A stretch of 64,000 nt of DNA from an uncultured Gammaproteobacteria bacterium (GCA_964602915.1 CAZRTB010000001.1:598417-662416); one strand, 5' to 3'. Shown: positions 15,038-35,489, counted from the stretch's first letter. The notes: generated from the sequence alone by a model not told the origin. Made by a program: numbers and translations.

Positions 15038-15111
15038 GGGCCCTTACCTCAGCTGGATAGAGGACTCGGCTACGAACCGAGGTGCCGTGGGTTCGAATCC
15101 CTCAGGGCCCG
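15038..15111 (+). tRNA. tRNA-Arg (anticodon ACG)
   Basis: Cloverleaf read by eye. The acceptor stem GGGCCCT/AGGGCCC is 7 bp. The D arm is CCTC-AGCTGGATA-GAGG. The anticodon arm is CTCGG-CTACGAA-CCGAG with the anticodon ACG. The T arm is GTGGG-TTCGAAT-CCCTC with one mismatch. No CCA is encoded. The track ORF 14987..15205 overlaps it and is therefore spurious. Confidence 0.85.
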
Positions 15112-17018: not shown

Positions 17019-17023
17019 GGGAA

Positions 17024-18448: not shown

Positions 18449-18458
18449 AGGGATAAAC

Positions 18459-19340: not shown

Positions 19341-19351
19341 AGAGGTAAGAC

Positions 19352-20692
19352 ATGAGTGTAAATGAGAAAAATATTGATTTGCAAATAAAAGGGATTCCTT
19401 CAAAAGAAGAGATTCTAAAAGTTAGAAAAAACAATTTCCCCCCAACAGCTTTTTTGTATTATAGAAACCCAGTTCAGCTTGTAAAAGCAAAAGGTAACTA
19501 TGTTTGGGATGAAAGTGGAAAAGAATATTTAGATGCAATTGGTGGAATTGTCTGTAATTCAGCAGGACATAACCATCCTAAAATTCAATCTGCTTTAATT
19601 GATCTGATTAAAAATGATGAAATCCAGCATACAACTACTATATATTTAAATCATCACATTACAAATCTAGCAAAGAAAATAATTGCAGAAGCACCAAAAG
19701 GTTTAGATAAATGTACATTTACAAACTCAGGCTCTGAAGCTAATGAATATGCTTTTATGTCTGCTCGTAATGCTACTGGTGAACAGATGATTGTAAATCT
19801 AAGGCATGGATATCATGGTGGAACAGCGGCTACCACTGCAAACTGTGGACTTTATACATGGCGGTTTAAATCACAACCCGTTTCATCTGTAACATCAGCA
19901 ATGGAACCTTATTGTTATCGTTGTCCTTTTGATAAGAAGCCTGATAGCTGTAATCTTGAGTGTGTAAAAAATATTGAAACTACAATTCAAACATCAACGA
20001 GTGGGAAAATAGCAGGATTTATAGCAGAACCCATCATGGGAGCAGGAGGAGTAATAGCTCCACCAGATCAATACTTCCATGAAGCAGTAAAAATTGTTCA
20101 TAATTATGGTGGAAAATATATAAGTGATGAAGTGCAGACTGGCGCAGGAAGATGCGGAGAGAGATTTTTACTAACTACAGAACTTGGTATTTCTGCAGAT
20201 ATGGTAACAATGGCAAAAGGATTTGGAAATGGTTCAGCGATTGGATGTGTTTTATTAAAATCAGATATAGCAGAAGCTCAGACTGGAAAACTTTACTTTA
20301 ATACTTTTGGTGGTGATCCATTTCAAACAATGCAGGCACTGAAGACAATGGAAATTATTGAGGAAGAGAATTTAATAAAAAATGCAAAAGAATTAGGAGC
20401 ATATATTAAATCAGGACTTAATGACCTTATGAAAAAATATGAAATTATTGGAGATGTTAGAGGAAGAGGTCTTTTACTCGGAATAGAACTAGTGAAAGAT
20501 AAAAAATCAAAAGAACATGCTGTAAAAGAATGCGCAGATATATTAGAAATAACAAAAGATAACGGTTTGCTTTTAGGTAAAGGTGGACTTTTTGGAAATA
20601 TTATAAGAATTGCACCAGCTTTATCTATAAATAAAAAACAAGCAGATTTCCTTCTGGAAAAATTAGATTCAGCCTTTAAACAAGTTAGATAG
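19352..20692 (+). CDS. class III (omega) aminotransferase, beta-alanine--pyruvate/2-oxoglutarate type
   Basis: The PLP-fold-type-I class III landmarks are present: SGSEANE, the ISDEVQTG Schiff-base region, and the Lys in TMAKGFGNG. The length is 446 aa. Confidence 0.8.
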   Translation: MSVNEKNIDLQIKGIPSKEEILKVRKNNFPPTAFLYYRNPVQLVKAKGNYVWDESGKEYLDAIGGIVCNSAGHNHPKIQSALIDLIKNDEIQHTTTIYLNHHITNLAKKIIAEAPKGLDKCTFTNSGSEANEYAFMSARNATGEQMIVNLRHGYHGGTAATTANCGLYTWRFKSQPVSSVTSAMEPYCYRCPFDKKPDSCNLECVKNIETTIQTSTSGKIAGFIAEPIMGAGGVIAPPDQYFHEAVKIVHNYGGKYISDEVQTGAGRCGERFLLTTELGISADMVTMAKGFGNGSAIGCVLLKSDIAEAQTGKLYFNTFGGDPFQTMQALKTMEIIEEENLIKNAKELGAYIKSGLNDLMKKYEIIGDVRGRGLLLGIELVKDKKSKEHAVKECADILEITKDNGLLLGKGGLFGNIIRIAPALSINKKQADFLLEKLDSAFKQVR

Positions 20693-20748
20693 TGGAACAT
20701 TTAATATCTACTTATGAGTCTTAACTGAAGTAGGATAAAGATATAACT

Positions 20749-22209
20749 ATGGAAGTCGATTCAGAACTAATCAATGAAGATTTAGCACCAGTTTTAGCTG
20801 GAAAAAAGAATTGGAATACTTGGAACTATACTGCTTTATGGATTGGAATGTGCATTAATATTCCTTCTTATATGATTTCTGCTTCATTAATTCAGGGCGG
20901 AATGAATGTAAAACAAGCAGTTTTTACTGTATTTCTTGGAAATGTTATTGTTCTTATTCCAATGGTTTTGAATGGACATATAGGAGTAAAATATGGAATC
21001 CCATTCCCTATTTATGCAAGACTTAGCTTTGGAGTTAAAGGTGCAAATATTCCTGCTTTATTAAGAGCAATTGTAGCTTGTGGGTGGTTTGGTATTCAGT
21101 GCTGGATAGGCGGTTCAGCGATTTATACCATGCTTCAAATCATTTGGCCTGGAGCAGTTGATTTCCCTAAAATAATGCCAGAATTTTTGCAAGTATCGTT
21201 TGTTCCATTTTTATGCTTTATGATTTTTTGGAGTATCAATGTCTTTTTAATTTGCAAAGGCATTGAATCAATTAAAATTTTAGAAACTTACTGTGCTCCA
21301 TTCTTAATTTTAAGTGGATTAGCACTTCTTATGTGGGCATTTAATAATGCTAATGGACTTGATTCTCTTTTAGCCAGTCCATCAAAGTTTAAAACAATAG
21401 CAGAATTCTGGAAGTTTTTCTTTCCTGCATTGACAGGAGTTGTTGGGTTTTGGGCAACTTTAAGTTTAAATATTCCTGATTTTACTAGATATGCAAAAGA
21501 TCAAAAGGCACAGATTGTTGGTCAGGTTCTTGGACTACCACTTACGATGACACTAATTGCATTTATTGGTGTGGCAGTAACAATGGCATCATTTATTATT
21601 TATGGTGAATATATCTGGAATCCGGTTGACCTGGTAAGTAAATTTGAAAATAAAATAGTAGTTTTTATAGCAATGGGATTGATTAGTTTAGCTACGTTAG
21701 CTATGAATGCCGCCGCAAATGTTGTAGCTCCAGCTAATGATTTCTCAAATTTATGCCCATCAAAAATTGATTTTAAAAAAGGGGGGTTAATTACTGCATT
21801 TATTGGCTTAGTGATTATGCCCTGGAAGCTAATTTTAGATCCATCAGGATATATTTTTACATGGCTTATTGGATATTCAGCATTGCTTGGTCCTATTGCT
21901 GGTATTCTTTTGACAGATTATTTTATAATAAGAAGAGCAAGAGTAGAAGTTCGTGATCTCTATACTTTTTCTGGCAAGTATTCTTATTGTAAAGGATATA
22001 ACATTAGTGCGTTACTTGCTCTTATATTTGGGGTATTACCAAATTTGCCAGGATTTTTTGTTCAGATAAACGTGCTACCTAAAAACATGTTTCCTTCTTT
22101 TATTATTGAGCTTTACCATTATGCATGGTTTATTGGACTGTTAATATCTAGCATCTTTTATTTTATATTAATGAAATGCCAAAAAACAGAGGTAGAAAAA
22201 AGTGTCTGA
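20749..22209 (+). CDS. NCS1 family nucleobase/hydantoin:cation symporter (cytosine/uracil/allantoin permease-like)
   Basis: 12-TM protein. It has the N-terminal NEDLAPV..KKNW..WNY..LWIGMCINIPSYM signature of NCS1/PucI-Mhp1-type permeases. Confidence 0.75.
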   Translation: MEVDSELINEDLAPVLAGKKNWNTWNYTALWIGMCINIPSYMISASLIQGGMNVKQAVFTVFLGNVIVLIPMVLNGHIGVKYGIPFPIYARLSFGVKGANIPALLRAIVACGWFGIQCWIGGSAIYTMLQIIWPGAVDFPKIMPEFLQVSFVPFLCFMIFWSINVFLICKGIESIKILETYCAPFLILSGLALLMWAFNNANGLDSLLASPSKFKTIAEFWKFFFPALTGVVGFWATLSLNIPDFTRYAKDQKAQIVGQVLGLPLTMTLIAFIGVAVTMASFIIYGEYIWNPVDLVSKFENKIVVFIAMGLISLATLAMNAAANVVAPANDFSNLCPSKIDFKKGGLITAFIGLVIMPWKLILDPSGYIFTWLIGYSALLGPIAGILLTDYFIIRRARVEVRDLYTFSGKYSYCKGYNISALLALIFGVLPNLPGFFVQINVLPKNMFPSFIIELYHYAWFIGLLISSIFYFILMKCQKTEVEKSV

Positions 22210-23515
22210 GTTAAATCTAGAAAAAGCCTTTGAAACAATTAAGCCTAAACTTACTCCAAATGAAGCTGTGATTGAGGCTTCACGTTGTTTGTTTTGTTAT
22301 GATGCACCATGTATAACAGCTTGTCCTACTAGCATTGATATTCCTCTTTTTATTAGACAGATAATGACAAAAAATACAAAAGGTTCAGCGAAAACAATTT
22401 TTACTCAAAATATTCTTGGTAAATCATGTGCTCAGGTCTGTCCTACAAAAAATCTTTGTGAGGGGGCTTGTGTCTATCATAATTTAAATGAAAAACCAAT
22501 TGACATAGGAAAGCTTCAGGCTTTTGCCAGTGATTATGCTATTGATAACAAAATCTATTTTTTTGAAAAAGGAAAACCAACAGGAAAAAAAATTGCAGTA
22601 ATAGGCAGTGGTCCAGCTGGACTTGCTTGTGCGCATGAGCTTACTAAGTTTGGACATGATGTAGTGGTATTTGAAGCGAGTCAAAAACCAGGGGGATTAA
22701 ATGCATATGGTGTTGCCCCATATAAATTTACAAATAATGATGCTCAGAAAGAAGTTGAATATATTCAAAAAATTGGTTTTGAGATCAGAACAAATACTAT
22801 GATTAGTGATAAAAAAGATAAAAATACTATCTCTATTTCAGAGCTTGAGAAAGATTTTTCTGCAATATTTATTGGTACTGGATTAGGAGCCTCTAAGAAA
22901 ATTAAAATTAAAGGAGAAGAATTAAAAGGTGTTATAGGAGCTACTGAATTTATTTACGAATTAAGAGATAAAGAACAAAAGATTGCTATAGGGAAAAAAG
23001 TAGTAGTAATTGGTGCAGGAAATACAGCAATAGATGCTACGGTAGAGTCTGCTAAGCTTGGAGCGGATGTAACGCTTGTTTATCGTAGATCTGAAAATGA
23101 GCAAAAAGCCTATAGTTTTGAAGTGGAGTATGCTAAAAAAAACGGAGTAAAGTTTATTTATCTGGCTTCTCCAGTGGAAATCCTTGGAAAAGATTTTGTT
23201 GAAGGAGTAAAGTTTATAAAAAATAAACTAATTTCAGAAAAAGAAATTAAAGAGATTGAAAACTCAGAATTTATAATCCCTTGTGATATGGTAATTACTG
23301 CAATAGGACAAGAATCTGTTATAAGTCTATTTAAGTCTATTCAAAATCTTGAACTAAAAGATGGAAAGATAGTTGTAAATAAAGACTATCAAACAAAAAA
23401 TCCAAAATACTTTGCTGGCGGAGATTGTGTAAATGGTGGCAAAGAGGTTGTAAATGCAGTTCAGCATGGTCGTGATTCAGCAAGAGGAATTCATAAGTAC
23501 CTATGTCAAATCTAG
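22202..23515 (+). CDS. preT: NAD-dependent dihydropyrimidine dehydrogenase subunit PreT (GltD-like FAD/NAD oxidoreductase with Fe-S)
   Basis: N-terminal Cys clusters (CLFCYDAPCITACPT ... CAQVCPT..LCEGAC). Two dinucleotide folds are present (IAVIGSGPAGLACA, VVVIGAGNTAIDA). It has a GTG start overlapping the permease stop. Confidence 0.85.
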   Translation: MSELNLEKAFETIKPKLTPNEAVIEASRCLFCYDAPCITACPTSIDIPLFIRQIMTKNTKGSAKTIFTQNILGKSCAQVCPTKNLCEGACVYHNLNEKPIDIGKLQAFASDYAIDNKIYFFEKGKPTGKKIAVIGSGPAGLACAHELTKFGHDVVVFEASQKPGGLNAYGVAPYKFTNNDAQKEVEYIQKIGFEIRTNTMISDKKDKNTISISELEKDFSAIFIGTGLGASKKIKIKGEELKGVIGATEFIYELRDKEQKIAIGKKVVVIGAGNTAIDATVESAKLGADVTLVYRRSENEQKAYSFEVEYAKKNGVKFIYLASPVEILGKDFVEGVKFIKNKLISEKEIKEIENSEFIIPCDMVITAIGQESVISLFKSIQNLELKDGKIVVNKDYQTKNPKYFAGGDCVNGGKEVVNAVQHGRDSARGIHKYLCQI

Positions 23516-24768
23516 AAGTAAATATTGCAGGAATAAAATCACCGAATCCATTTTGGCTGGCTTCAGGTCCTCCGACAAATACTGCTTATCAGATAATAAA
23601 AGCTTTTACTGCAGGATGGGGTGGTGCTGTCTGGAAAACTTTGGGACAGCCAATTGCTAACGTATCTAGCAGATATGGCGGACTGTCATATAAGAATAAT
23701 AAGTTACTAGGATTAAATAATTTAGAACTCATTTCTGAAAAATCTGTAGAAGAAAATGTTAAAGAGATGAAAATTGTAAAGGAAAAATTCCCAAAAAATG
23801 CTCTTATAGCATCTTTAATGTTTGAGAAAAAAGAAGAATGGCATGATGCTATCTTACGCTGTGAAGATATTGGAATTGATGGGTTCGAATTAAATTTTGG
23901 TTGTCCACATGGAATGTGTGAAAGAGGTATGGGTTCAGCAGTGGGACAAAATCCAGATGTATGCGAAAAAATTACTTCATGGGTTATGGAAAAAGCAAAG
24001 AAACCAGTTATTGTAAAGCTAACTCCTAATGTTACGGATATAACCAAAACTGCTCTTTCTGCTCAAAGAGGTGGAGCAAATGCGGTTTCATTAATAAATA
24101 CTATTAATTCGGTTACTGGAATAAATCTAAATACTATGAATCCAAACCCTTCAGTTGATGGTTTTTCGTCACATGGTGGTTATTGTGGCCCTGCTGTAAA
24201 ACCAATTGCTTTAAATATGGTTTCAGAGGTTTATAATCATCCAGATTTTCATTTACCTATTGTTGGAATTGGTGGAATTGAAACCTGGCAGGATGCTTGT
24301 GAGTTTATTTTAATGGGAGCTCAAGCAGTTCAGGTTTGTACTGCAGTTATGCACTATGGTTTTAGAATAGTTACGGATTTAAACACGGGAGTCAGTGAAT
24401 ATTTATCCATGAACAATATGAAAAATATAATCGAGCTTTCTGGAATATCTGCAAAAAAACTAAGAAAATGGGAACAGTTAGATTTAAATTTTAAAACAAT
24501 TGCAAAGATAGATTCAAATAAATGTATTTCATGTCAGCTATGCTATATAGCCTGTGATGATAGTGCATATCAGTCAATTACATTATCTAAAGATTCAAGA
24601 ATTCCTATCATACTAGAAGATAAATGTGTTGGGTGTAATTTATGTAGCCTTGTTTGTCCAGTAGATGACTGTATAACAATGGTAGAAACCAGAACTAAAA
24701 AAGAAAAACTCCTATGGAAAGATCATCCGAAAAATATTAAAATTATAGAGAATGATAAAAGAAAATAA
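23503..24768 (+). CDS. preA: dihydropyrimidine dehydrogenase subunit PreA (DHOD-like FMN domain + 2x[4Fe-4S] ferredoxin)
   Basis: The TIM-barrel DHOD-like region has GFELNFGCPHG, the Cys in the active-site loop, and IVGIGGI. The C-terminal region is CISCQLCYIACDD ... CVGCNLCSLVCPVDDC. Confidence 0.85.
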   Translation: MSNLEVNIAGIKSPNPFWLASGPPTNTAYQIIKAFTAGWGGAVWKTLGQPIANVSSRYGGLSYKNNKLLGLNNLELISEKSVEENVKEMKIVKEKFPKNALIASLMFEKKEEWHDAILRCEDIGIDGFELNFGCPHGMCERGMGSAVGQNPDVCEKITSWVMEKAKKPVIVKLTPNVTDITKTALSAQRGGANAVSLINTINSVTGINLNTMNPNPSVDGFSSHGGYCGPAVKPIALNMVSEVYNHPDFHLPIVGIGGIETWQDACEFILMGAQAVQVCTAVMHYGFRIVTDLNTGVSEYLSMNNMKNIIELSGISAKKLRKWEQLDLNFKTIAKIDSNKCISCQLCYIACDDSAYQSITLSKDSRIPIILEDKCVGCNLCSLVCPVDDCITMVETRTKKEKLLWKDHPKNIKIIENDKRK

Positions 24769-26239
24769 AAAGCTTATTTTTGTTTTAGGTTTTATTTTAG
24801 TTTTTTATATTTGGGTTGGAGGAACAGCAAGCTCTGGCTTTAATCCCGATAGAAATATTTATAACTACTATAATATGCTTACAGATGGTTTCCTTGGTGG
24901 AAAATTACATTTATTAGTTCAACCAAGACCAGAAATATTAAGATTAAATAACCCATATGATTTTGAAACAGTAAATAAATATAGTAAGTTTTACTTATGG
25001 GACACTTGCTTTTATCATAGAAAATATTACATTTACAACAGTATTGTGCCGATTGTTTTTGTTTATCTTCCCTATAAATTTCTTTTTAAGATTGGTATCT
25101 CAGATTATTTAGTGACAACAATTTTTATGTTTTTAGGTTTAGTTTTTACTGTTTTAACCTTAAAGAAAATATGGAATAAGTATTTTAATCATTTACCAGA
25201 ATGGATTTTTCTACTATGTGTTCTTACTTTAGGGTTTTCTAACATTGCCCCGCATATGCTTAGGAGGCTTGCTCAGTACCAGGTAGCTATTTCTTCCGGG
25301 TACTTTTTTTTAAATGCAAGTATTTTCTTTTTATATAAAGCCTCTTCAGAGGTTAAAAATATTTCTAGAAATTTATTAATAGCAAGTTTTTTATTTGGAC
25401 TTTCAGTTTTATCTAGATTTGATTTAATTTTTGGTATAGCTATTTTCTTTTTAGTATGGAAAAAAATATCAGACAAAAAATCGTCACTGCTATATTTAGG
25501 ACAATTATTAATACCAATGCTAATGTGCTTTGTATTTCAGGGTTTATATAATTATCTTAGATTTGATGACTTCTTAGAGTTTGGAAGCAAGTATCATCTT
25601 GGACTTAAATCTAAATGGCTTTTTGGTTTCGATTATATAGTCACAGGATTATATTTATATCTGGTTAATAATTTATATATTACTTCAGAGTTTCCATTTG
25701 TTTATTGTGCAAGCTTTTTCCCACCATATTTAAAAATCCCAAAACTCTCATATATAGAAAGAACAACAGGAATTTTTACTACAGTACCTAATTCTATCTT
25801 TTTTATTGCTCATTATGGAATCATAGGCTTTTTTAATAAACCTTTTTCAGAAAAGCTAAAGAAAAACTTTCCAAAGTTTGAGTTTAATCTCTTTTTTCTC
25901 CCGGGAATTACCATTTTATTGGTACTTGCTATGTTAAATATGTTTAGTATGAGGTATTCTACTGACTTTACGACCCTTCTCCTGAGTGCTTCATTCATTA
26001 TTTTTTTTCAATTATACTCACTACTATTTCAGGATAAAAAGAAATTAAAAATCATAAATTATATTTTTATAGCATTTTCACTTATTAGTATTTATAATGG
26101 ATTTGCATTTAGTGTTATTGGCTGTGAAATAGAAGTCGCAAAATATGGACTTCTGGCACACAATCCCGAACAATATTATTTTTTAAAAAATCTGTTTGAG
26201 CCAGTATCAAAAATTATTTTTAAATTACTTGGAAGGTAA
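24752..26239 (+). CDS. polytopic membrane protein, possible GT-C-type glycosyltransferase or glycan-processing membrane protein
   Basis: 495 aa with about 12 predicted hydrophobic spans and large Tyr/Phe-rich loops. It is adjacent to the glycosyltransferase and methyltransferase cluster. The start overlaps the preA stop by 17 nt. Confidence 0.35.
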   Translation: MIKENKKLIFVLGFILVFYIWVGGTASSGFNPDRNIYNYYNMLTDGFLGGKLHLLVQPRPEILRLNNPYDFETVNKYSKFYLWDTCFYHRKYYIYNSIVPIVFVYLPYKFLFKIGISDYLVTTIFMFLGLVFTVLTLKKIWNKYFNHLPEWIFLLCVLTLGFSNIAPHMLRRLAQYQVAISSGYFFLNASIFFLYKASSEVKNISRNLLIASFLFGLSVLSRFDLIFGIAIFFLVWKKISDKKSSLLYLGQLLIPMLMCFVFQGLYNYLRFDDFLEFGSKYHLGLKSKWLFGFDYIVTGLYLYLVNNLYITSEFPFVYCASFFPPYLKIPKLSYIERTTGIFTTVPNSIFFIAHYGIIGFFNKPFSEKLKKNFPKFEFNLFFLPGITILLVLAMLNMFSMRYSTDFTTLLLSASFIIFFQLYSLLFQDKKKLKIINYIFIAFSLISIYNGFAFSVIGCEIEVAKYGLLAHNPEQYYFLKNLFEPVSKIIFKLLGR

Positions 26240-27361
26240 GCACTTTTTAAAAGCTTCATAGTATTTATTACTACACTCATCCCAGCTCCATTTATTTTTT
26301 GCAAATGTTGAGACTTTTGATCTTCTACTTTCCAATAAATCGGGATTTTTACTTAAATCCTCTATTATTTCACTCCAGTCATTTATATTATTAACATCTT
26401 TAAAAAAAACATAATCTTTAATTTCAGGACAAGCATTCATAGTCTCTGTACTAATTAAAGCTGGTGTACCACAGGCCATTGACTCCTGGACTACAAGAGG
26501 AAATCCTTCTCCTTTACTGGGTAAAATGAGTAAGTCAGTACACTGATAATATTTTACTAAGTCATTATAAGGGACTTTCCCCACTACCTTTACATTTTTA
26601 AGATTCCAGGAAAGAGGATTAATTATCCCCCACCCTATAATTACCCATTCTATATCTTTGAACTTTTCAGCAAGTCTTTTTATAATACCTAATCCCTTTT
26701 TTTCTACAAATCTACCTATGAATAGAAAAACTTTTTTTTCACAAGAAATCTTTAAATTCTCTCTGCATTTTAATCTTTCTTCTTTACTAATAGGTTTGAA
26801 AATTGAACTGTCAACTCCATGCTCTATCCATAGAGGAGGATTTTTAAATTTTACAATTTTTGAAAAATAAGATTTTTGATTTTTACTATAGAAAACTACA
26901 TAATCAGCCTTACTTAACATGAATCTTCCAAGGGTATTGTTTAATAGTGAGTGAAGCATCTTTAAGAATATATTTTTAAATGGAATCAGACCTATATGCT
27001 GAGTAATTACTAGAGGCTTTTTTTTAATCTTGCTAATTATAAAAGCAATTATGCTACCTGGATAAATAAAATCATGAATGTGAATGACATCAATATTTTT
27101 AGAAGAATTCCAAATCTTAATTACTGAAGCTATTCCCCATAGAGGGTAGGGTATTCCGATTGAATCTTCAAAGATATTATTTACTTTTACTGGTATATAA
27201 GTAATTTCTTTAAATCTATCTTTAGAAGGATTAATTTCACTAGAAACCCAAACGATTTCTGCTTTATGATTTAGATTTAAATATTTTGCTATTTTATCTG
27301 CAACAATTTCAACACCACTTAAGTGTTCAGGATAATAATGAGTAATTAAAAGAATCTTCAT
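26225..27361 (-). CDS. glycosyltransferase, GT-B fold (GT4 family)
   Basis: The C-terminal half has LPSKGEGFPLVVQESMACGTPAL, the E-x7-E donor-binding motif of GT4. Confidence 0.85.
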   Translation of the reverse strand: MKILLITHYYPEHLSGVEIVADKIAKYLNLNHKAEIVWVSSEINPSKDRFKEITYIPVKVNNIFEDSIGIPYPLWGIASVIKIWNSSKNIDVIHIHDFIYPGSIIAFIISKIKKKPLVITQHIGLIPFKNIFLKMLHSLLNNTLGRFMLSKADYVVFYSKNQKSYFSKIVKFKNPPLWIEHGVDSSIFKPISKEERLKCRENLKISCEKKVFLFIGRFVEKKGLGIIKRLAEKFKDIEWVIIGWGIINPLSWNLKNVKVVGKVPYNDLVKYYQCTDLLILPSKGEGFPLVVQESMACGTPALISTETMNACPEIKDYVFFKDVNNINDWSEIIEDLSKNPDLLESRRSKVSTFAKNKWSWDECSNKYYEAFKKCLPSK

Positions 27362-27365
27362 TGTA

Positions 27366-28061
27366 TTATTTCTGAAAATAAACAGCAGTACTATCTATTT
27401 TCTTTAAATCAAGCTTTATTTTTTTTTCAAATTCAAAATCGTGTACAGCTTTTTTACACCCTTCCCAGTAGCCGTAATCATCTATAACAATAAATCCACC
27501 TTTTTCTACCTTATCATATAAGTTATCTAAACAGATTTTTACTGAACTATACCAGTCTGCATCTATATGTAATAAAGATATCTTATTTTCAGAAGTAGCA
27601 AATCTTGGTATGGTTTTTTCAAAGTCTCCTTCTATTAATTGTATATTTTGATTAGTTTTAGCTACTTTTTTTAATAGCTTAAAAACCTTTTCTTTAGTAC
27701 CTTTATAATTTCCGACATATTTCAGAGCTTTTTTTCCATCTACTTTTTCTGGTTTTGGAAGTCCGGAAAACGAATCAAAAAGAAAAAGAGTTCTACCCAA
27801 TAATGATTTGGAAGAGGCTTCTGCTAAAATTGCTGAAGAGCCGCCATTATAAACACCACATTCAACAACATCACCTATAATATTCTCTTTGTCCAATTGA
27901 AAAACAAGTTCTCTAAGTTTTTTTAACCTTCCAGCAGTTAATGTTGTATATGGTAACGCTGATTTATAGGGCTCAGAGAGAAATAAGGCTTTAATTCTGT
28001 TAATAAACTCTTCTACCTTTTCTCTATAGGGAAAATATTGCATAAATTTATTTATAAGCAA
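27366..28061 (-). CDS. TylF/MycF-family SAM-dependent O-methyltransferase
   Basis: GDVVECGVYNGGS (SAM motif I) and LLHIDADWYSSV...GGFIVIDDYG, the TylF-type metal/SAM signature. Confidence 0.7.
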   Translation of the reverse strand: MLINKFMQYFPYREKVEEFINRIKALFLSEPYKSALPYTTLTAGRLKKLRELVFQLDKENIIGDVVECGVYNGGSSAILAEASSKSLLGRTLFLFDSFSGLPKPEKVDGKKALKYVGNYKGTKEKVFKLLKKVAKTNQNIQLIEGDFEKTIPRFATSENKISLLHIDADWYSSVKICLDNLYDKVEKGGFIVIDDYGYWEGCKKAVHDFEFEKKIKLDLKKIDSTAVYFQK

Positions 28062-28758
28062 CTACTATATATACACAGGCATTTGTATCTGTTATTGATT
28101 TTGGAGTGATTTGATCTTCGACTAAGATTAAAAGATTTAAAATGCATGTTATGGGTAGTAAAACTAATGACCCTAAAACACCAAACTTATTTAAGATATT
28201 ATAAAAACCAAATAGAAAATATTGTGTAGTTAATGATAAAGGACCCATTAATGGGTATACTTTTTTAATCTTAAATCCTGAAGATTCTACTTCTTTTATT
28301 AATCCTTCTTTTGTCCATCTTCTATAATCTGTTGGGTGTGGATGATAAGGCCATACGCCGTGTGTTGAGAGAATTAACCAACCATCTTTTTTAAGAATTT
28401 TATAGCAGTTCTCTAAATATTTATTTACGTTCCAAACATGTTCTAATACTTGAAAGGAAGCCACTCCATTTGCATAACCATCAGATACAGGTATATTTTC
28501 ATCTGCTTTAATTTTATAATCAGCCTCATCTGTTATATCAGACTTTATATATCTGCAATTATATTTAATAAAAAGCTTTTCATAGGGTGAATATCCACAA
28601 CCATAATCAAAAATAATGTCTTCTGAACCTATTTTAATATCTGAATTAATAATATTAACTATTGCATTTTTTAAACAAGTTAAAACGTACCACTGATGAT
28701 CCCAAAATCTGGGATTTAATCTTAACTCGCCCTTATTTTTTTCTTCTAAAGAATTCAC
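28048..28758 (-). CDS. class I SAM-dependent methyltransferase
   Basis: IIFDYGCGYSPY motif I and post-I acidic residue (IKSD). The C-terminus is hydrophobic. Confidence 0.65.
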   Translation of the reverse strand: MNSLEEKNKGELRLNPRFWDHQWYVLTCLKNAIVNIINSDIKIGSEDIIFDYGCGYSPYEKLFIKYNCRYIKSDITDEADYKIKADENIPVSDGYANGVASFQVLEHVWNVNKYLENCYKILKKDGWLILSTHGVWPYHPHPTDYRRWTKEGLIKEVESSGFKIKKVYPLMGPLSLTTQYFLFGFYNILNKFGVLGSLVLLPITCILNLLILVEDQITPKSITDTNACVYIVVAYK

Positions 28759-28788
28759 TACTATAAATTTACCAAGTAAAGAACAAAT

Positions 28789-29649
28789 TTATGTCAACAA
28801 TAACTTTTTAAACCTATTTAACAAAGAAGATTTTTTATAACCCTTTAATATCTCAATATTTTCTATTTCACAAATATTATTTTTTGAGCTTAAAAAATTA
28901 TAGTCTCTCCAGTCATATGCTAATTCCCCATTAATTGAAATGCATATGTATTTTCTTGGATCTAATTTTGAAAACGCACTAAAAAACATCTTTGTAATAA
29001 AAGAATAAATTTTATCAAATCTCCACTCTTTAATTCTTCTTTTAAGCTCTATAGAAATATTATTTTCCCCTTCTATATAGTCATTAAATTCATTTGCACA
29101 ATCTGAAAATGTTACGATGTGAATATGATCAAATAACTTGTGATTCTTTAATAAATTAATTAGATTTTCTTTTGCTTTTGTAAAATTCTCAGTCTGTGTA
29201 TTTTTTTTATAATCACTTTCATTAGTATAAAACATTGAATACCATATATTTTTAAGTCCTGCTTTTTGAAGACTAATTAATCTTTCGGGTGTAAGTAATA
29301 CCCCATTAGTAGCAATCCAGATTTCAACATTATTAATTCCTGATATTGATGATATGTAATTCTCTAAATCTTTATAGATTAAAGGTTCACCTAAAACATG
29401 AAAGAAAATCTTAAATTTTATCTTTGGAAATGAAAGTAGAAACTCTTTTACTTTTCTTATTACTTTTTCATTTATAAAACCAGTCCTGTTTAATTTATCA
29501 ATAGGACAAAAAATACATTTATTATTACATTGAGCAGTGACTTCAGAATAAATCGTAATAGTAGAAAATTCTTTTAGATATCTGTTTAGTGATAAAGCAA
29601 AAAATGACATTTTAATCCTATTAATTATTTCTTTTCCATAATCCAACAA
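28789..29649 (-). CDS. radical SAM enzyme
   Basis: CNNKCIFCP is a CX3CX2C motif near the N-terminus. GEPL and NGVLL motifs are also present. Confidence 0.7.
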   Translation of the reverse strand: MLDYGKEIINRIKMSFFALSLNRYLKEFSTITIYSEVTAQCNNKCIFCPIDKLNRTGFINEKVIRKVKEFLLSFPKIKFKIFFHVLGEPLIYKDLENYISSISGINNVEIWIATNGVLLTPERLISLQKAGLKNIWYSMFYTNESDYKKNTQTENFTKAKENLINLLKNHKLFDHIHIVTFSDCANEFNDYIEGENNISIELKRRIKEWRFDKIYSFITKMFFSAFSKLDPRKYICISINGELAYDWRDYNFLSSKNNICEIENIEILKGYKKSSLLNRFKKLLLT

Positions 29650-30208
29650 ACTGTAAATGATTGCTTATATAGCCTAAAATTCCTGTGTGACATTTGGCTG
29701 GCTGAATTAGTTTTACAAGTGAAAAACCTTCTTTTTCTATAACAGGAAACCATTTAAAATTCTTCTGGTAATGATTTAATAAGCTAATAGTATATTCTCT
29801 GTTCCCGATTAAATCAAGAACATTCAATAAAGCTTTTTCAGGTAGAGTATTGTAATTATGATCTTTGATTAGTAAATAATTTTTTGTACACCTAAGAAGG
29901 TCTTTTAATGTACTCTCTGAATTATTGCAGTGGTGTAAAACATCAATGCTGAATGTTATATCAAACTCTCTAGTGTTAAATGGAAGCGACCCTCCGTTAT
30001 AAATTAAAATTTCATGATTTGTGTTTTTTCTTTTGTATACATCTATAGCTGTTATAGATTTTACAAGATTTAATTTTTTAATTTCATTTGAAAACCAACC
30101 ATCTCCACTACCAAAATCAAGCATTTTTTCAAATACTCCAAGATCTTTAATACAACTAGTGATTAAATTTAAAATGTGCTTTTGATATGATTTTAAATCA
30201 TTATCCAT
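29621..30208 (-). CDS. class I SAM-dependent methyltransferase
   Basis: KMLDFGSGDGWFS motif I and the acidic residue in TAIDV. Confidence 0.65.
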   Translation of the reverse strand: MDNDLKSYQKHILNLITSCIKDLGVFEKMLDFGSGDGWFSNEIKKLNLVKSITAIDVYKRKNTNHEILIYNGGSLPFNTREFDITFSIDVLHHCNNSESTLKDLLRCTKNYLLIKDHNYNTLPEKALLNVLDLIGNREYTISLLNHYQKNFKWFPVIEKEGFSLVKLIQPAKCHTGILGYISNHLQFVGLWKRNN

Positions 30209-31427
30209 TTTTGTGACGCTTTGATAGTCCTAACATGCTGGCAAAAAATCCGAAAAGCAGAGTTTGAAATCCTATTACACAAAAAGTTGTTCCAGTTGTT
30301 AACAATTCAATTCTTAAATTCTGATCAGTATGAAAATTAGAGTTAAACAAATAAAATAAATAAGACAGTGAAATCATGCCGACTAAAAGAGATAAAAGGC
30401 TGATTATAAGAGTTCTTTCTAGGTTGAACACTTTGAAAAAGAGTTTCATAAAACTATCAATAGGAAGAATACTTTCATTTACAGCATAGCCTTTTGCTAA
30501 AATTGCAAAAACGATAGCTTGATAACCAGATAAAATTAAAAAACTAGATACTTGAAATAATATTAATATCTGTTCTATATTAAAGTCGCTTTTTGTTGAG
30601 GTAAAACCATAGATAAGTCCAATCATTCCTGTGAGAAATAACATAAACCCAGGATATAAAAAGAGCCAGTTTGGACTATATATTAAAAGAAAACGCAAAG
30701 TTCTCCACCCATCTTTAAAAGTATTTAAATGCGGCTTTTTATTTTTTCTTCCATCTTTGTGTAATGTGATAGGGATTTCAGTAATTTTTGCATTAATGAA
30801 ACTTGGTTTAACTACTAGCTCTATTGCAAATTCCATTCCAGCACAAACAAGATTTAATTTTTTATAAAGGTCATTTGTAAAACCTCTTAACCCGCAAAGA
30901 GCATCATTAATGGGGATTTTAAACCATACTCTTGTTAAAAATGAAAAGAGCGGATTTCCAACCCATCTGTGAAGGAATGGCATTGCAGAGGGTAAAGTCT
31001 TTCCGCCTCCAGCAGGAAGCCTGCATCCTAAAACTAAATCATAGCCATTTTGTAGCTTGTTTAAAAAATTTGGGATTTCACTGAAATCATAACTCCCATC
31101 AGCATCACCCATAATAATATATTTTCCTTTTGCTGATTCAATGCCACCCATTAAGGCTTGTCCGTATCCTTTTTTTTCTATCGTAATAACTTTTGCCCCT
31201 AGTGATTCTGCTATTTTAGGAGAATCGTCATCACTATTATTATCAGCAACAATAACTTCACCTTTAATATGATGCTTTTCAAAAGTATCCTTTATCTTTT
31301 CTATGCAAAAACCTATTGTATCTGCTTCATTTAAGCAGGGAATAACTACAGATACTTCTAAATCAACATTACTCATTTCATTATATTTTGCCACAAATAT
31401 GTTTTTTAGAGGAGAAATATAAATCAA
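30201..31427 (-). CDS. GT2 polyprenyl-phosphate glycosyltransferase (Dpm1/GtrB/ArnC-like) with C-terminal membrane domain
   Basis: VSVVIPCLNEADTI...VADNNSDDDS...IIMGDADGSYD (GT-A DXD). The C-terminal 150 aa contains about 4 TM helices. Confidence 0.8.
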   Translation of the reverse strand: MIYISPLKNIFVAKYNEMSNVDLEVSVVIPCLNEADTIGFCIEKIKDTFEKHHIKGEVIVADNNSDDDSPKIAESLGAKVITIEKKGYGQALMGGIESAKGKYIIMGDADGSYDFSEIPNFLNKLQNGYDLVLGCRLPAGGGKTLPSAMPFLHRWVGNPLFSFLTRVWFKIPINDALCGLRGFTNDLYKKLNLVCAGMEFAIELVVKPSFINAKITEIPITLHKDGRKNKKPHLNTFKDGWRTLRFLLIYSPNWLFLYPGFMLFLTGMIGLIYGFTSTKSDFNIEQILILFQVSSFLILSGYQAIVFAILAKGYAVNESILPIDSFMKLFFKVFNLERTLIISLLSLLVGMISLSYLFYLFNSNFHTDQNLRIELLTTGTTFCVIGFQTLLFGFFASMLGLSKRHKNG

Positions 31428-31456
31428 TAAGAAACTATTTATGTATAATTAAGCTT

Positions 31457-32671
31457 ATGGAACATTTCGATGTAATTGTATGTGGTGCAGGTCCTTCTGG
31501 AAGCTCGTCTGCAAAAACATTAGCTGAAAATGGATTAAAAGTTCTACTTTTAGAAAAAGAAAAACTTCCCAGACGTAAAACCTGTGGTGGTGGAATGCCT
31601 ATTGCTATAACTGAGTTTTTAAAAAATGTAGAGCCTTCTGCATTTGTAGAATCAGAAGTAACTTATATGAGACATACATTGAACTATAAAGACCCTATCT
31701 TAGTGCCTATAAATCAGGATTCTTCAACAAAAACCATAAAACTTTTTATGGTTCAAAGATCTATTTTTGATAATGCTATTGCAGTTTCTGCTTGTAAAGC
31801 AGGAGCAATTCTTAAGGATGATTTAGCATTGACCTTATTGGAAATTGAAAATGGAAAAGTTAAAATAAAAGCAAAATCAAAAAATGATACCTCTTATGAA
31901 GCAAGTGCTGATTATATTATTGGTGCTGATGGTGCAAATGGACAAGTTGCTAAGTTTGTAGGTCTAAGAAAAGAAAAGATAATGGCTTTTGCTCTTGAAA
32001 TTGAACATCCGTATGAATGGAAAGAAAACAGCGAGTTCTTAAGGAAAGATGTTTTACATTTAGAATATGGTGTTCCAGGTGGATATGCATGGATTTTCCC
32101 TAAAAAAGATCATTTAAATGTCGGAGCAGGTATATTTTCTCCATTTACAAAAGAAATAGCAAATATAAAAAATCCAAAAGAACTATTACAAGATTCAATC
32201 TTAAAATACTTAGAGATGTTTAAAATTTCTTATAACAAAGAAAGTATGCACTTTTATGGACATCCTTTACCTATTTGGAATGGAAAACAGAATCTGCATA
32301 CAAAAGATGAAAAAGTAATATTAGTAGGAGATTCTGCAGGTTTAATAAATCCATTATTTGGTGATGGAATCTTACATGCTGTTAAAAGTGGAATAATAGC
32401 GGGAGAATGCATTATAAATAAAGATGTAAAGAATTACACGAGGATTATACATGAAGAATTCGGGATAAATTTTGACAGTGCAAGAAGACTTGCACCGATT
32501 TTTTGTAAGTTTGTTAATCCTGTCTACAATCACGTTGTGAAAAGACCTACCGCTACAAGGGTTGCGGCTGAACTTTTAAGTGGGGATTTAACATTTACAA
32601 GTGTTGCAGATAGGACAATTCAAAGATTAAGCACATTAATCCCAGGACTAAATTATTTAGTTAAGTCTTAA
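31457..32671 (+). CDS. FAD-dependent oxidoreductase, geranylgeranyl reductase family
   Basis: MEHFDVIVCGAGPSGSSSAKTLAENGLKVLLLEKEK is a Rossmann FAD fold and RRKTCGGGMP matches the GGR-family motif. The ORF track starts at 31388, which would overlap the divergent GT2 start; the Met at 31457 immediately precedes the dinucleotide fold. Confidence 0.6.
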   Translation: MEHFDVIVCGAGPSGSSSAKTLAENGLKVLLLEKEKLPRRKTCGGGMPIAITEFLKNVEPSAFVESEVTYMRHTLNYKDPILVPINQDSSTKTIKLFMVQRSIFDNAIAVSACKAGAILKDDLALTLLEIENGKVKIKAKSKNDTSYEASADYIIGADGANGQVAKFVGLRKEKIMAFALEIEHPYEWKENSEFLRKDVLHLEYGVPGGYAWIFPKKDHLNVGAGIFSPFTKEIANIKNPKELLQDSILKYLEMFKISYNKESMHFYGHPLPIWNGKQNLHTKDEKVILVGDSAGLINPLFGDGILHAVKSGIIAGECIINKDVKNYTRIIHEEFGINFDSARRLAPIFCKFVNPVYNHVVKRPTATRVAAELLSGDLTFTSVADRTIQRLSTLIPGLNYLVKS

Positions 32672-32756: not shown

Positions 32757-32960
32757 TTGGGAGGTTTTATGAGTTTCAATACACAAACAAAACTAGATTT
32801 AATTACAGCAGAAACACCAGGTGAACTTTTAAGTAACGTCAAGTCCCATTTAGAAAAAGAAAAATTAAAACCAGTTTCCATGAATGTGGTGAAAGAACAT
32901 AATAGTTTTTGTGCTCTTGTTGTTAGTGAACCAAAATTTAATAGCGAGTATATAGGATAA
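32757..32960 (+). CDS. small hypothetical protein (67 aa)
   Basis: GGGAGG SD lies 5 nt upstream of the ATG. No recognisable motif. Confidence 0.4.
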   Translation: MGGFMSFNTQTKLDLITAETPGELLSNVKSHLEKEKLKPVSMNVVKEHNSFCALVVSEPKFNSEYIG

Positions 32961-32996: not shown

Positions 32997-34061
32997 GTGT
33001 CAGTTTTTGATAAAATTAAAGTAAAAAAAATAATAAGTTTTGCTAGTGATAATTACTCAGGAGTTCACCCTGACATTATGAATGCTATTGTTGAGGCTAA
33101 TGCTGGGCAGGCAAGAGCATACGGAGAAGATGATTATACTCTGATATCAGATGAGATCTTTAAAAAACATTTTGGAAAAAATATAGAAGTTTATTATGTT
33201 TTCAATGGTACTGCAGCAAATGTTTTAGGCTTGAAAGCTATTACGGAATCCTTCCATTCTATTATATGTGCGGAAACAGCACATATAAATGGAGATGAGT
33301 GTGGTGCTCCTGAAAGATTTACTGGTTGTAAGCTTTTAACAATTCCATCGCAAGATGGAAAAATTACTGTTGAGCAGATAAAAAAGTATCTCTATCATCT
33401 GGGAAATCATCATAGAAATCAGCCAAAAGTAATTTCAATTACTCAGCCCACAGAATATGGAACATTATATTCTCCTAGTGAAATAAGAAAAATAGCAGAT
33501 TATGCACATGAAAATAATTTATTTCTTCATATGGATGGAGCGAGGTTATCTAATGCTTCATCTGCACTGAATTTATCCCTGAAAGAAATTACTAAAGATG
33601 TAGGTGTAGATGTTTTATCTTTTGGTGGAACTAAAAATGGCATTATGAGTGGTGAGACTGTGATATTTTTTGATATGCCAGATATAGGATACAACTTTAA
33701 ATTTATTAGAAAGCAGGGAATGCAGTTAGTCTCAAAAATGAGATATATTTCTGCTCAGTTTATAGCATTCTTGTCTAATGATTTATGGTTAAAAAATGCA
33801 ACTCATGCAAATCAGATGGCAAGGCTGTTAGAAGAAAAACTTAAAACTATTCCAGCCATTAAAATTACTCAAAAAGTAGAAACAAATTCAGTCTTTGCAA
33901 TAATGCCAGAGAAAGTTATCCCAATAGCACAAGAAAAATACCCATTCTATATGTGGAATCCTGAGATTTCTGAGGTTAGATTTATGACTTCTTTTGATAC
34001 AGAAAAGCAGGATATAGAAAATTTTGTGAATGATTTAAAAGGTTTTTTAGCCGGCTTTTGA
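32997..34061 (+). CDS. ltaE: PLP-dependent low-specificity threonine aldolase family (beta-eliminating lyase fold)
   Basis: SFASDNYSGVHPDIMNAIVEANAG N-terminus, the ...HMDGARL.NA region, and the Schiff-base Lys in FGGTKNG. Confidence 0.7.
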   Translation: MSVFDKIKVKKIISFASDNYSGVHPDIMNAIVEANAGQARAYGEDDYTLISDEIFKKHFGKNIEVYYVFNGTAANVLGLKAITESFHSIICAETAHINGDECGAPERFTGCKLLTIPSQDGKITVEQIKKYLYHLGNHHRNQPKVISITQPTEYGTLYSPSEIRKIADYAHENNLFLHMDGARLSNASSALNLSLKEITKDVGVDVLSFGGTKNGIMSGETVIFFDMPDIGYNFKFIRKQGMQLVSKMRYISAQFIAFLSNDLWLKNATHANQMARLLEEKLKTIPAIKITQKVETNSVFAIMPEKVIPIAQEKYPFYMWNPEISEVRFMTSFDTEKQDIENFVNDLKGFLAGF

Positions 34062-35489
34062 AGAAGATATTCTTTTTGATTCTCTAATAATATCCATTGC
34101 ATTGTTAAAAACCAAATTAATATCCCTCTCATTTCTACAAACACGAGAATCACATAACACCTCAGCAGTGGTATTTATTAGATTAGAAGAGGCTCCTTCC
34201 TTGATAAGTTTAATAAACTCTTCTGTAAAGAATCCACTTCTAATATTTTCTCTGTTGTTAATAAATACTTCCATGAAACTGGATTGTTCTATTGGGATAT
34301 TTGCCTTTGCAAGCATATAAATATCATTATGTAAGTTCTCTAAAACAACACCATGTTTTGAAAAACATTTAGAGGAAATGTCAAAAAATCTTTCTAGATA
34401 TTTTTCATCAATATTATTTCCTATTAAAGAGATAGACTGATCTATCACACCACCATCTCTCATATAAAGACCTTCCTCGGAGCATTTAAAGAAACCAGTA
34501 TAAAAAGCTGTAAGCTGACTAATGCTTAATGATTTTATGGACAGAATCCTTGCATTACCTTCAAGAAAATCAAAAAGAGGTTTTTTACTTTTCCCAGAAA
34601 CCGTTATTTTATTTAATGAAGAGTTGTATACCCTAACAGGGAATTCTGTAGATAGGTATTTATCAAGATTGTCAAAAAATAAATCAATTTTTTTCGAATC
34701 AATGTTTAATTTTGATATTTGAGCAAGTGACTTAACAATAGGACTTAATTTGCAATAGTGTAAAGAAGGATAGTTTTTATTTGTGCCCATATGATAATTT
34801 AAGAGCTCATCTAATACAAGCATCATCCTATCTCCAGGGACTGAAATAAAAAAATCTCTATAACCACTAACCAGTTCTTCTAGCTTCCATTTGTCTGGCA
34901 TTGTTGTTTGTTCGTAAATAGCAGAGTCTAAAAATCCCCTCATTAAATATAACGATAAGTTCCTTATAGCATAGTTCTGTGTGGATATTTTCTCTTCATT
35001 ACTTAAGTCTCTAAGCAAAAGACATGCTTCGGAAATTTTTAGAAAATCACAGTTTTTCCTTCTGTCTGCATCACAGAGTGATCTAAGGCAAGCAGGTTTT
35101 TTTACTTCACCTAATCCGTGAGTAAGATATGTATCTGCTGAAGCCAACTTTAAAGTATTTAAAAATATTAATTCAGATTTTATATCATCAAGAGGAAAGC
35201 CACAGGTTACAAAATTTAGGACAGCTCTTTTTAAGTGATCTTTATTGAGATTATTTAAACTATTTAATAATTGGAGAAAGCCTTTTATTCCACTTTGTTC
35301 TTTTTGAAATTCCTTTGAAAAATCAACATTTTTCTTATGTTTTGCTAAATTACTTAGACAAAGTCTTATTCGTTCAGTTAAAATTTCTTCAAAAGAGTTT
35401 TCTTTTTTTTCTTCTACAGGTTTAACCTCTTTTACAGGTATTCGTGTAAGACGTTGTTTCAATGCATTATTGTTTGAAATAGGTTCCAT
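34047..35489 (-). CDS. hypothetical protein (480 aa)
   Basis: Long ORF with no recognisable motif. It is transcribed divergently from the helicase-nuclease gene. Confidence 0.45.
   Translation of the reverse strand: MEPISNNNALKQRLTRIPVKEVKPVEEKKENSFEEILTERIRLCLSNLAKHKKNVDFSKEFQKEQSGIKGFLQLLNSLNNLNKDHLKRAVLNFVTCGFPLDDIKSELIFLNTLKLASADTYLTHGLGEVKKPACLRSLCDADRRKNCDFLKISEACLLLRDLSNEEKISTQNYAIRNLSLYLMRGFLDSAIYEQTTMPDKWKLEELVSGYRDFFISVPGDRMMLVLDELLNYHMGTNKNYPSLHYCKLSPIVKSLAQISKLNIDSKKIDLFFDNLDKYLSTEFPVRVYNSSLNKITVSGKSKKPLFDFLEGNARILSIKSLSISQLTAFYTGFFKCSEEGLYMRDGGVIDQSISLIGNNIDEKYLERFFDISSKCFSKHGVVLENLHNDIYMLAKANIPIEQSSFMEVFINNRENIRSGFFTEEFIKLIKEGASSNLINTTAEVLCDSRVCRNERDINLVFNNAMDIIRESKRISSSKAG

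Follow-up and report, generated by a model that had tools for sequence, protein, structure and literature searches.

We analyzed 64,000 nucleotides (nt) of DNA from an uncultured Gammaproteobacteria bacterium (GCA_964602915.1 CAZRTB010000001.1:598417-662416); this whole stretch is called the window. The window is AT-rich (~30% G+C) and contains, at 24752-31394, a cluster of seven genes in which a minus-strand series of glycosyltransferase, methyltransferase and radical S-adenosylmethionine (SAM) genes converges with the gene for a polytopic membrane protein. The analysis indicates, with a probability of roughly 60%, that these seven genes form a self-contained module for the extracytoplasmic decoration of an envelope glycoconjugate, which proceeds by way of a lipid-linked monosaccharide. 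Two kinds of computed results carry this interpretation. These are the families and predicted folds of a family 2 glycosyltransferase (GT2), of the membrane protein (GT-C) and of a TylF methyltransferase, and the linkage of GT-C, methyltransferase and transmembrane (TM)-anchored GT2 genes (GT2-TM), which recurs in other genomes. We regard the cluster as a variant of three-component periplasmic glycosylation that is ordinary, though unclassified.

An earlier note on this DNA had described a minus-strand operon of six genes, a convergent gene for a 12-TM protein and a divergent gene for a reductase of the geranylgeranyl reductase (GGR) family. This arrangement was borne out by the map of open reading frames (ORFs) and by Pfam and NCBIfam searches, and all eight ORFs were found where they had been placed. 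The minus-strand genes are separated by only -8, +10, +30, +4 and +4 nt, so that an operon is likely. The GT4 gene at its end and the gene for the membrane protein overlap tail to tail by 15 nt, and the GT2 and GGR genes diverge from starts ~62 nt apart. The features are as follows (aa, amino acids; FAD, flavin adenine dinucleotide).

24752-26239, plus strand: 495-aa polytopic membrane protein of predicted GT-C fold with ~10-12 hydrophobic segments; proposed periplasmic transferase using a polyprenyl-phosphate-sugar donor.
26225-27361, minus strand: GT4-family (GT-B fold) Leloir glycosyltransferase, last gene of the operon (Pfam Glycos_transf_1 82.9 bits, Glyco_transf_4 43.4 bits).
27366-28043, minus strand: putative SAM-dependent sugar O-methyltransferase of the TylF/NovP/MycF type (Pfam TylF 150.9 bits).
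28048-28758, minus strand: class I SAM methyltransferase with a C-terminal hydrophobic membrane anchor (Methyltransf_23 E 7.8e-11, Methyltransf_11 E 2.7e-8).
28789-29610, minus strand: small BtrN-like radical SAM enzyme with a CxxxCxxC motif (Pfam Radical_SAM 54.2 bits only).
29621-30208, minus strand: soluble class I SAM methyltransferase (Methyltransf_11 E 3.4e-9), the start overlapping the GT2 stop by 8 nt.
30201-31394, minus strand: GT2 catalytic domain with four C-terminal TM helices, first gene of the operon (Glycos_transf_2 88.8 bits).
31457-32671, plus strand: GGR-superfamily FAD reductase (TIGR02032 205 bits), a divergent neighbour judged to lie outside the glycan module.
32769-32960, plus strand: 63-aa ORF directly 3' of the GGR gene, kept in close relatives; it travels with the GGR gene, not with the glycan genes.

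All these domain assignments lie well above chance; the class I methyltransferase domains matched Methyltransf_11/23 with E values of 1e-9 to 1e-11. Of the domains for which a check by hidden Markov model (HMM) had been suggested, GT2, TylF and GGR were each confirmed (88.8, 150.9 and 205 bits, respectively). The locus is assembled identically, and with the same gene calls, in five independent metagenome contigs; these calls use shorter starts than the longest ORFs (GT2 397 aa, GGR 404 aa, radical SAM protein 273 aa, TylF protein 225 aa). No direct or inverted repeats that would mark the cluster as a mobile island were detected at its flanks in a repeat search. Promoter and terminator scans of the AT-rich window gave results equal to the shuffled expectation and were not used.

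The first gene of the operon encodes, as we conclude from homology, a probable polyprenyl-phosphate hexosyltransferase of the four-TM type. The best matches among PDB sequences were PfDPMS, the dolichyl-phosphate mannose synthase of Pyrococcus furiosus (8.3e-13), then ArnC and GtrB. A structure model was built from 32 homologues (predicted local distance difference test, pLDDT, 86.4). Foldseek aligned this model with PfDPMS over 385 columns, including the membrane domain, and then with ArnC and GtrB, with a probability of 1.00. A hydropathy scan located four C-terminal TM segments and the protein carries the precomputed annotation PF26629 GT2_TM_C. The best NCBIfam models were archaeal AglJ (135.9 bits) and the DolP-hexose transferase (90.2 bits), both under their cut-offs. 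The family is very large, with at least ~8,000 proteins at E<=1e-20; the 120 matches listed are all ~390-470 aa long and combine PF00535 with PF26629 GT2_TM_C. Sequence and fold comparisons hence agree with the polyprenyl-phosphate glycosyltransferase proposed earlier, and by its homology the protein would be the donor synthase of a Gtr-like three-component system.

The convergent 495-aa protein is supported as a GT-C enzyme by its predicted fold. The AlphaFold2 model is confident (pLDDT 89.5, predicted template modelling score 0.92), and 281-365 of its residues align to ALG12, PIG-M, Pmt2, ArnT and Pmt4. Known sequence models did not recognize it: it has no Pfam match even at E<=1, no match to an NCBIfam model and no significant HMM match to GT39/GT83-type families (Pfam PMT, PMT_2). 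In a Pfam scan of 22 family sequences PMT_2 was touched by a single homologue (3.6e-4), an hhalign comparison of the family with a neighbouring PMT_2 protein gave a probability of 2.4%, and the family profile found only noise among PDB sequences. The earlier note had regarded the protein as a GT-C transferase and had named a lack of GT-C signatures as grounds for dropping that idea. The fold part of this assignment stands, while the sequence signatures of GT39/GT83 are absent by the Pfam models.

A word-based search returned only 22 relatives of the 495-aa protein. The exhaustive profile search returned 9,795 cluster representatives (50% identity) at E<=1e-3 and 4,145 at E<=1e-30, so the family is large, though it is covered by no family model tried. 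D84 is invariant in the 22 sequences. It is located in the long loop that connects TM1 (6-26) to the following TM helix (99-112), and this loop should be extracytoplasmic, given the Lys-rich N-terminus. Further invariant positions are R222, a YNYxRF motif (266-271) and R401. Literature searches returned nothing on this GT-C family.

The genomic neighbourhoods of homologues were compared in two sets. GT-C homologues were scanned for in one genome per species with a profile from 9 sequences, and the 80 resulting loci were searched with the window proteins; the second set consisted of 80 loci of close GT2-TM homologues, which gives 160 comparison loci together. The nearest relatives of the GT-C protein in the genome scan were in four Candidatus Melainabacteria metagenome-assembled genomes, followed by Legionella and Tatlockia, Opitutaceae, Bryobacteraceae, Endomicrobia and Lachnospiraceae. 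A GT2 similar to that of the window occurred within 10 kb of the GT-C homologue at 21 of the 80 loci. The closest GT-C homologue (42% identity, locus L177) is in a compact co-directional operon between trpC and tatC, with the order GT-C, GT-C paralogue, methyltransferase, methyltransferase, GT2_TM_C. The Melainabacteria locus L006 reads, in one direction, epimerase, GT2-TM, methyltransferase (4-nt overlap), a 699-aa protein without Pfam match, short GT2 and GT-C homologue, with a second GT-C homologue nearby. Locus L012 comprises a methyltransferase, an oxidoreductase, GT2-TM, TylF, another methyltransferase, a PMT_2 protein, two GT-C homologues and two PMT_2-PA14 proteins. The commonest families among the three nearest neighbours, counted over 46 loci, were GT2, class I methyltransferases, nucleoside diphosphate-sugar epimerases/dehydratases and GHMP kinases. 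The grouping of GT-C, methyltransferase and GT2-TM genes is therefore one that recurs in other genomes.

The GT2 loci tell a complementary story. By phmmer, seven of the 80 loci have a similar methyltransferase gene directly 3' of the GT2-TM gene, as do L092 and L094; in L006, L092 and L094 it overlaps the preceding GT2-TM gene by ~4 nt. TylF homologues were near GT2-TM homologues at 8 of the 80 loci. The GT-C family of the window was near them at one, with a marginal match, and 79 had no detectable homologue. Therefore, the system has GT2-TM plus one or more methyltransferases as its core, for which this GT-C family is one possible partner among several. Additions particular to this cluster are the TylF protein, the GT4 and the radical SAM enzyme. 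Close relatives of the window either have or lack the GT-C gene together with most of the operon, as a single block that was inserted or deleted between preA and the GGR gene.

Several observations weigh against a single module of seven genes. The 79 loci just mentioned mean that the GT2 family also works with other partners. The GT-C gene is on the strand opposite to the operon and its start overlaps the preA stop, so it may be read through or translationally coupled with the pyrimidine-catabolism operon to which preA belongs. The cluster has no gene for a flippase (GtrA/SMR, MATE or Wzx); its genes are tightly packed, with no spare ORF in 24752-31457, and the nearest transporter-like gene encodes an EamA protein at 42594-43484. 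No gene for nucleotide-sugar biosynthesis is found in the cluster. The methyltransferases might use a nucleotide sugar or a cytoplasmic acceptor intermediate. The sugar, the acceptor and the site of methylation are not readable from the sequence, and the evidence base consists of homology, predicted structure and the gene context of uncultured organisms.

The opposite strand, the 17-nt overlap with the preA stop and the 79 GT2 loci would also be expected if the GT-C gene were unrelated to the operon and acted in another pathway; the operon alone would then make a cytoplasmic or membrane-bound methylated glycolipid or polysaccharide. The GT-C homologues of Legionella, which lie beside heptose-type sugar genes and a GT2 of another kind, short and soluble, fit this explanation as well. 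It does not account for the closest homologue, whose gene runs in the same direction and operon as those of two methyltransferases and a GT2_TM_C protein, for the same combination in L006 and L012, or for the similar GT2 at 21 of the 80 homologue loci. Furthermore, GT-C and GT2 are missing together in the nearest relatives. GT-C enzymes require a polyprenyl-(pyro)phosphate-sugar donor, and this type of GT2 makes the polyprenyl-phosphate-sugar donor that they need. Together, these results make it quite improbable that the GT-C gene is an unrelated neighbour, and we retain the module of seven genes.

The TylF protein bears on the chemistry of the module. It scored 150.9 bits against PF05711 (gathering cut-off 23), which places it in the TylF family, and its nearest solved structures are NovP (1.4e-20), MycF (1.9e-16) and CalS11, all of them sugar O-methyltransferases. 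This affinity supports an O-methylated sugar as the probable product. The other two of the three methyltransferases are generic class I enzymes without informative homologues. The one at 28048-28758 has no match among PDB sequences and has a hydrophobic segment at residues 188-212 (Kyte-Doolittle 2.5). The nearest solved structure to the radical SAM protein is BtrN (270 aa; 3.1e-9); Pfam found only PF04055 in its 273 aa and neither a B12 nor a SPASM domain, and no homologue was detected at any of the 160 comparison loci. BtrN is a radical SAM dehydrogenase that acts on a sugar-like cyclitol. Judged from this similarity, the enzyme of the window probably oxidizes or rearranges a sugar and is likely no methylase. 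A role as class B C-methylase was considered and rejected, since an N-terminal cobalamin-binding domain is missing and BtrN is closest. Of the O- or C-methylated sugars foreseen in the earlier note, O-methylation is thus favoured by the TylF protein, and C-methylation has no support because the radical SAM protein lacks a B12 domain. The GT4 scored under the cut-off of every NCBIfam equivalog, and a hydropathy scan found no TM segment in it.

For the identity of the sugar, the stage of methylation, the flipping step and the acceptor we infer the following scheme. At the inner face of the membrane, the GT2 would load a hexose, supplied by a nucleotide sugar, onto polyprenyl (undecaprenyl) phosphate. 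The three methyltransferases and the BtrN-like enzyme would then act before export, most likely on the lipid-linked sugar, and the GT4 may either attach a second sugar or assemble the acceptor. SAM is present only in the cytoplasm, so methylation and radical SAM chemistry must precede export; the lipid-linked sugar is favoured as the substrate because one methyltransferase is membrane-anchored and because of the minimal module of L177. The donor would next be flipped by a protein encoded outside the cluster or by the TM domain of the GT2 itself. Finally, the convergent GT-C-fold protein would hand the O-methylated sugar to a periplasmic acceptor, which may be lipopolysaccharide (LPS), another polysaccharide, a lipid or a protein. 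LPS is a guess: a GT9 heptosyltransferase gene at 2126-3190 (plus strand) suggests that the organism makes LPS (inner core), and nothing links the cluster to LPS specifically.

The same seven genes could work in a different manner, with the methyltransferases acting on a nucleotide sugar, on a separate acceptor glycan linked to undecaprenyl pyrophosphate or on targets other than sugars, so that the sugar transferred by the GT-C protein would be unmethylated. CalS11, a TylF-family member, methylates a thymidine diphosphate-sugar, the two generic class I enzymes lack informative homologues, and the GT4 implies a second, cytoplasmic glycosylation step. These points are opposed by the minimal module of L177, which consists of GT-C, methyltransferase and GT2-TM genes only and stands between housekeeping genes, with no other substrate pathway. 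They are opposed also by the membrane anchor of one methyltransferase and by the translational coupling of a methyltransferase to the GT2-TM gene in several phyla. NovP and MycF, moreover, take as substrates sugars already borne by an aglycone. We regard other substrates as rather unlikely and favour methylation of the lipid-linked sugar.

The GT-C family was found in Melainabacteria, Legionella, Opitutaceae, Acidobacteria, Endomicrobia and Firmicutes. A tentative extension, which we consider possible but would not yet back, is that this large and perhaps unclassified family (~9,800 clusters), PfDPMS-type GT2 proteins and SAM methyltransferases make up a pathway in which a sugar is O-methylated on polyprenyl phosphate and exported as a pre-methylated donor. 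Literature searches gave no description of a pre-methylated lipid-linked donor class for bacterial envelope glycans. If the model of the seven-gene module holds, a function could be named for a large membrane-protein family of many phyla, including Legionella, that has no Pfam match here. Bacteria would have a simple route for putting methylated sugars on surface glycans after export, with a bearing on antigenic diversity and glycoengineering.

A close functional parallel is the Gtr system of Shigella and Salmonella phages, in which a GtrA flippase, the GtrB synthase of undecaprenyl-phosphate glucose and a serotype-specific GT-C protein, Gtr*, glucosylate the O-antigen (PMC11127046). As in that system, a GT2 polyprenyl-phosphate glycosyltransferase and a GT-C membrane transferase stand side by side, and the model of the window GT2 superposes on GtrB. 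The window cluster differs in lacking a GtrA-like gene, in the four TM helices of its GT2 (as in PfDPMS, versus one or two in GtrB) and in its additional three methyltransferases, radical SAM enzyme and GT4. Its GT-C protein has no sequence similarity to known families, and it is chromosomal, not prophage-borne. The Gtr-like three-part logic proposed earlier holds for the synthase and for the GT-C transferase; it is incomplete for the flippase, of which the cluster has no gene.

Of the other known systems, the Arn and Citrobacter three-component systems operate in a similar way (PMC11127046). Unlike the ArnC/ArnT pathway that adds 4-amino-4-deoxy-L-arabinose (Ara4N) to lipid A, the cluster has neither the Ara4N biosynthesis genes ArnA/B/D nor the ArnE/F flippase, and its GT2 scored 43 against a cut-off of 529 with the ArnC model of NCBIfam. 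PfDPMS (PDB 5MLZ) and archaeal AglJ are the best sequence and fold matches of the GT2 and have the same architecture of a GT-A domain and four TM helices, but identity is only 17-19%, the AglJ equivalog gave 136 versus 325 and the host of the window is bacterial. In the Agl N-glycosylation pathway of Haloferax volcanii, AglJ is joined by AglP, which methylates the dolichyl-phosphate-bound glycan, and by an AglD/AglS branch that uses dolichyl-phosphate mannose (see also PMC11407970). By analogy only, that pathway also has a lipid-linked sugar methylated by a SAM methyltransferase on the cytoplasmic side and a separate lipid-phosphate hexose delivered outside by a membrane transferase. It differs in being archaeal protein N-glycosylation with the oligosaccharyltransferase AglB, and no AglB/PglB homologue occurs in the cluster. 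The pentofuranose three-component system ORF12/14/15 of Citrobacter youngae founded family GT136 (PMC11127046). It is a precedent for new GT-C families, without similarity to known ones, that operate in such systems. Its synthase depends on phosphoribosyl pyrophosphate (and is not a GT2), its flippase is a MATE protein and its GT-C protein has a C-terminal carbohydrate-binding module, none of which is found in the cluster.

The divergent GGR gene had led the earlier note to suggest a dolichol-like, partly saturated lipid carrier. The protein scored 205.3 bits against TIGR02032 (GG-red-SF, cut-off 158.8), which places it in the superfamily that ChlP/BchP, MenJ and archaeal DGGGPL reductases share, but it stays far below the cut-offs of these subfamilies (BchP-ChlP 149 vs 343, ChlP 100 vs 505, MenJ 81 vs 700, DGGGPL 78-88 vs 580-780). 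Its motifs GGYAWIFP and CGGG resemble GGR signatures. The protein is ~50% identical to 'geranylgeranyl reductase family' proteins of many cyanobacteria, which show the same NCBIfam profile (above TIGR02032, far below ChlP, BchP-ChlP, MenJ and the archaeal reductases); the Leptolyngbya gene sits among unrelated genes. Judged by these comparisons, the GGR is a member of an uncharacterised ChlP-paralogous clade that also holds the cyanobacterial proteins. Grouping with menaquinone or bacteriochlorophyll reductases had been named beforehand as evidence against a role in the cluster; the protein is far below the MenJ and BchP-ChlP cut-offs and belongs to a ChlP-paralogous clade.

The GGR could be coupled to the cluster by saturating one or more isoprene units of the polyprenyl-phosphate carrier to give a dolichol-like lipid, as its archaeal paralogues do. 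In Haloferax volcanii, a GGR deletion mutant was without saturated dolichyl phosphate, as reported in PMC10821996 (citing Naparstek 2012). The idea is reasonable because, according to the same paper, archaeal GGRs saturate dolichyl phosphate. The two start codons diverge only ~62 nt apart, the protein exceeds the superfamily cut-off and fits no characterized subfamily, and a TylF gene is likewise divergent beside the GGR gene in the related contig L087. The organism, moreover, appears to be non-photosynthetic, so that chlorophyll phytylation is no obvious role for the protein. Its taxonomic affinity is inferred from the nearest GT-C relatives, which belong to Melainabacteria, and from the likeness of the GGR to cyanobacterial proteins.

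The gene context of GGR homologues argues for a different explanation. Among five related contigs with a GGR gene, none has the GT2 or GT-C gene, one has TylF only and four have a small downstream ORF. In three of these from close relatives (L086, L087 and L088), the flanking proteins are 79-93% identical to those of the window and the GGRs 66-68%. The order in L086 and L088 is DEAD helicase (minus strand), GGR, small ORF and aldolase-type lyase, the helicase taking the place of GT2 and GT-C; L088 runs on into a DUF4011 helicase and L086 ends after the first 50 residues of it. The order in L087 is preT, preA, DEAD helicase, TylF, GGR, small ORF and lyase, the TylF protein being 63% identical to that of the window. 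GGRs at a greater distance (54-58% identity) are surrounded by unrelated genes, ispH among them in one instance, and the ~50% identical cyanobacterial proteins with the same score profile are also in unrelated contexts. No GGR gene was found within 10 kb of the GT-C homologue at any of 80 loci or within 8 kb of the GT2-TM homologue at any of 80 loci, and it is absent from L177, the closest homologous module.

Its divergence and its upstream sequence point the same way. GGR identity is 67.9% between the window and L086 and 82.6% between L086 and L088, and the values for the lyase are 84.1% and 90.6%; the GGR has thus diverged more quickly than the flanking genes, though in step with them, which fits vertical descent. 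An exchange of the GGR together with the island, considered in view of 67% identity against 80-93% for the flanks, was rejected as the distance ratio matches that of the neighbouring lyase. An extended -10-like element, TGTATAAT, lies ~7 nt before the GGR ATG (window 31430-31460, L087 8560-8585), and the immediate upstream sequence that carries it has been conserved in both the window and L087 irrespective of the gene further upstream. Its position so near the start hints at a leaderless or very short-leader transcript.

The fact that GGR is kept with its downstream genes in relatives devoid of GT2 and GT-C, and occurs at 0 of 160 comparison loci, makes a role in carrier saturation very improbable. 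The GGR is judged to be a vertically inherited gene in a small unit of its own (GGR and the 63-aa ORF) and not a component of the glycan module. With this negative result, the case for a dolichol-like, partly saturated carrier lipid in the bacterium falls away. The result raises the question of what a ChlP-paralogous GGR clade common to cyanobacteria reduces in an apparently non-photosynthetic lineage; literature searches returned nothing on a Melainabacteria GGR. The 63-aa ORF has 57-74% identity to the ORFs that follow GGR in L086, L087 and L088, lacks a Pfam match and is a possible GGR partner. In contig L089 a 65-aa ORF follows the GGR gene, with no clear similarity to the 63-aa ORF.

Some homologous loci have further features. 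In Legionella sp. D16C41 (L021, 4314-12259) the GT-C homologue is in an annotated cluster with a nucleotidyltransferase, an Amino_oxidase-type flavoprotein, a short soluble GT2, a SIS isomerase, a transaldolase/FSA, a GHMP kinase and an NAD epimerase. A similar short GT2 gene lies ~3 kb upstream of the GT-C homologue in five more Legionella/Tatlockia loci (L019, L024, L030, L035 and L043). The Legionella cluster looks like a pathway for an unusual, perhaps heptose-like, lipid-linked sugar. Flavoproteins of the Amino_oxidase/NAD_binding_8 type recur beside GT2 and GT-C genes (L006, 748-2046 and 9736-11304; L021, 5136-6551); in Melainabacteria and Legionella they might act on a sugar, as a mutase or DprE1-like oxidase, and not on a lipid, and are unrelated to the GGR. 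In Acidobacteria, proteins of ~500-530 aa without Pfam match flank the pair of GT2_TM_C and methyltransferase genes (L092, 6451-8019 and 9968-11494; L094, 9973-11568). They were undetected by the GT-C family profile and may be further unclassified membrane transferases.

The GT-C gene is preceded in the window by a complete reductive pyrimidine-catabolism operon (15504-24768, plus strand), and the overlap of its ATG with the preA stop occupies 24752-24768. The operon encodes an aldehyde dehydrogenase, a dihydropyrimidinase-like amidohydrolase, a CN_hydrolase, a class III aminotransferase, a cytosine/purine permease, PreT and PreA (614 bits vs NF006183). It is kept in L087 at 79-93% identity, where preA is followed by a minus-strand DEAD helicase gene instead of the GT-C gene. 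A tRNA-Arg(ACG) gene (15038-15111) and a PAS/GGDEF gene (13674-14966) lie 5' of the operon.

On the other side of the cluster, a 480-aa ORF without Pfam match (34047-35489, minus strand) is located between the aldolase-type lyase and the DUF4011 helicase; these two are adjacent in L088, so that the ORF is a second lineage-specific insertion. The helicase is a giant protein of 1,499 aa (35680-40179, plus strand) with DUF4011/AAA_11/AAA_12/MTES_1575 domains and 83% identity to its L088 counterpart. A second giant gene (57166-61848, minus strand) encodes a 1,560-aa protein without Pfam match. Near the beginning of the window, a gene for a MORN-repeat protein is followed by one for an 822-aa protein with collagen triple-helix repeats and DUF7151 (6696-9827, plus strand), and a Matrixin-like metalloprotease is encoded on the opposite, minus strand at 9899-11872.

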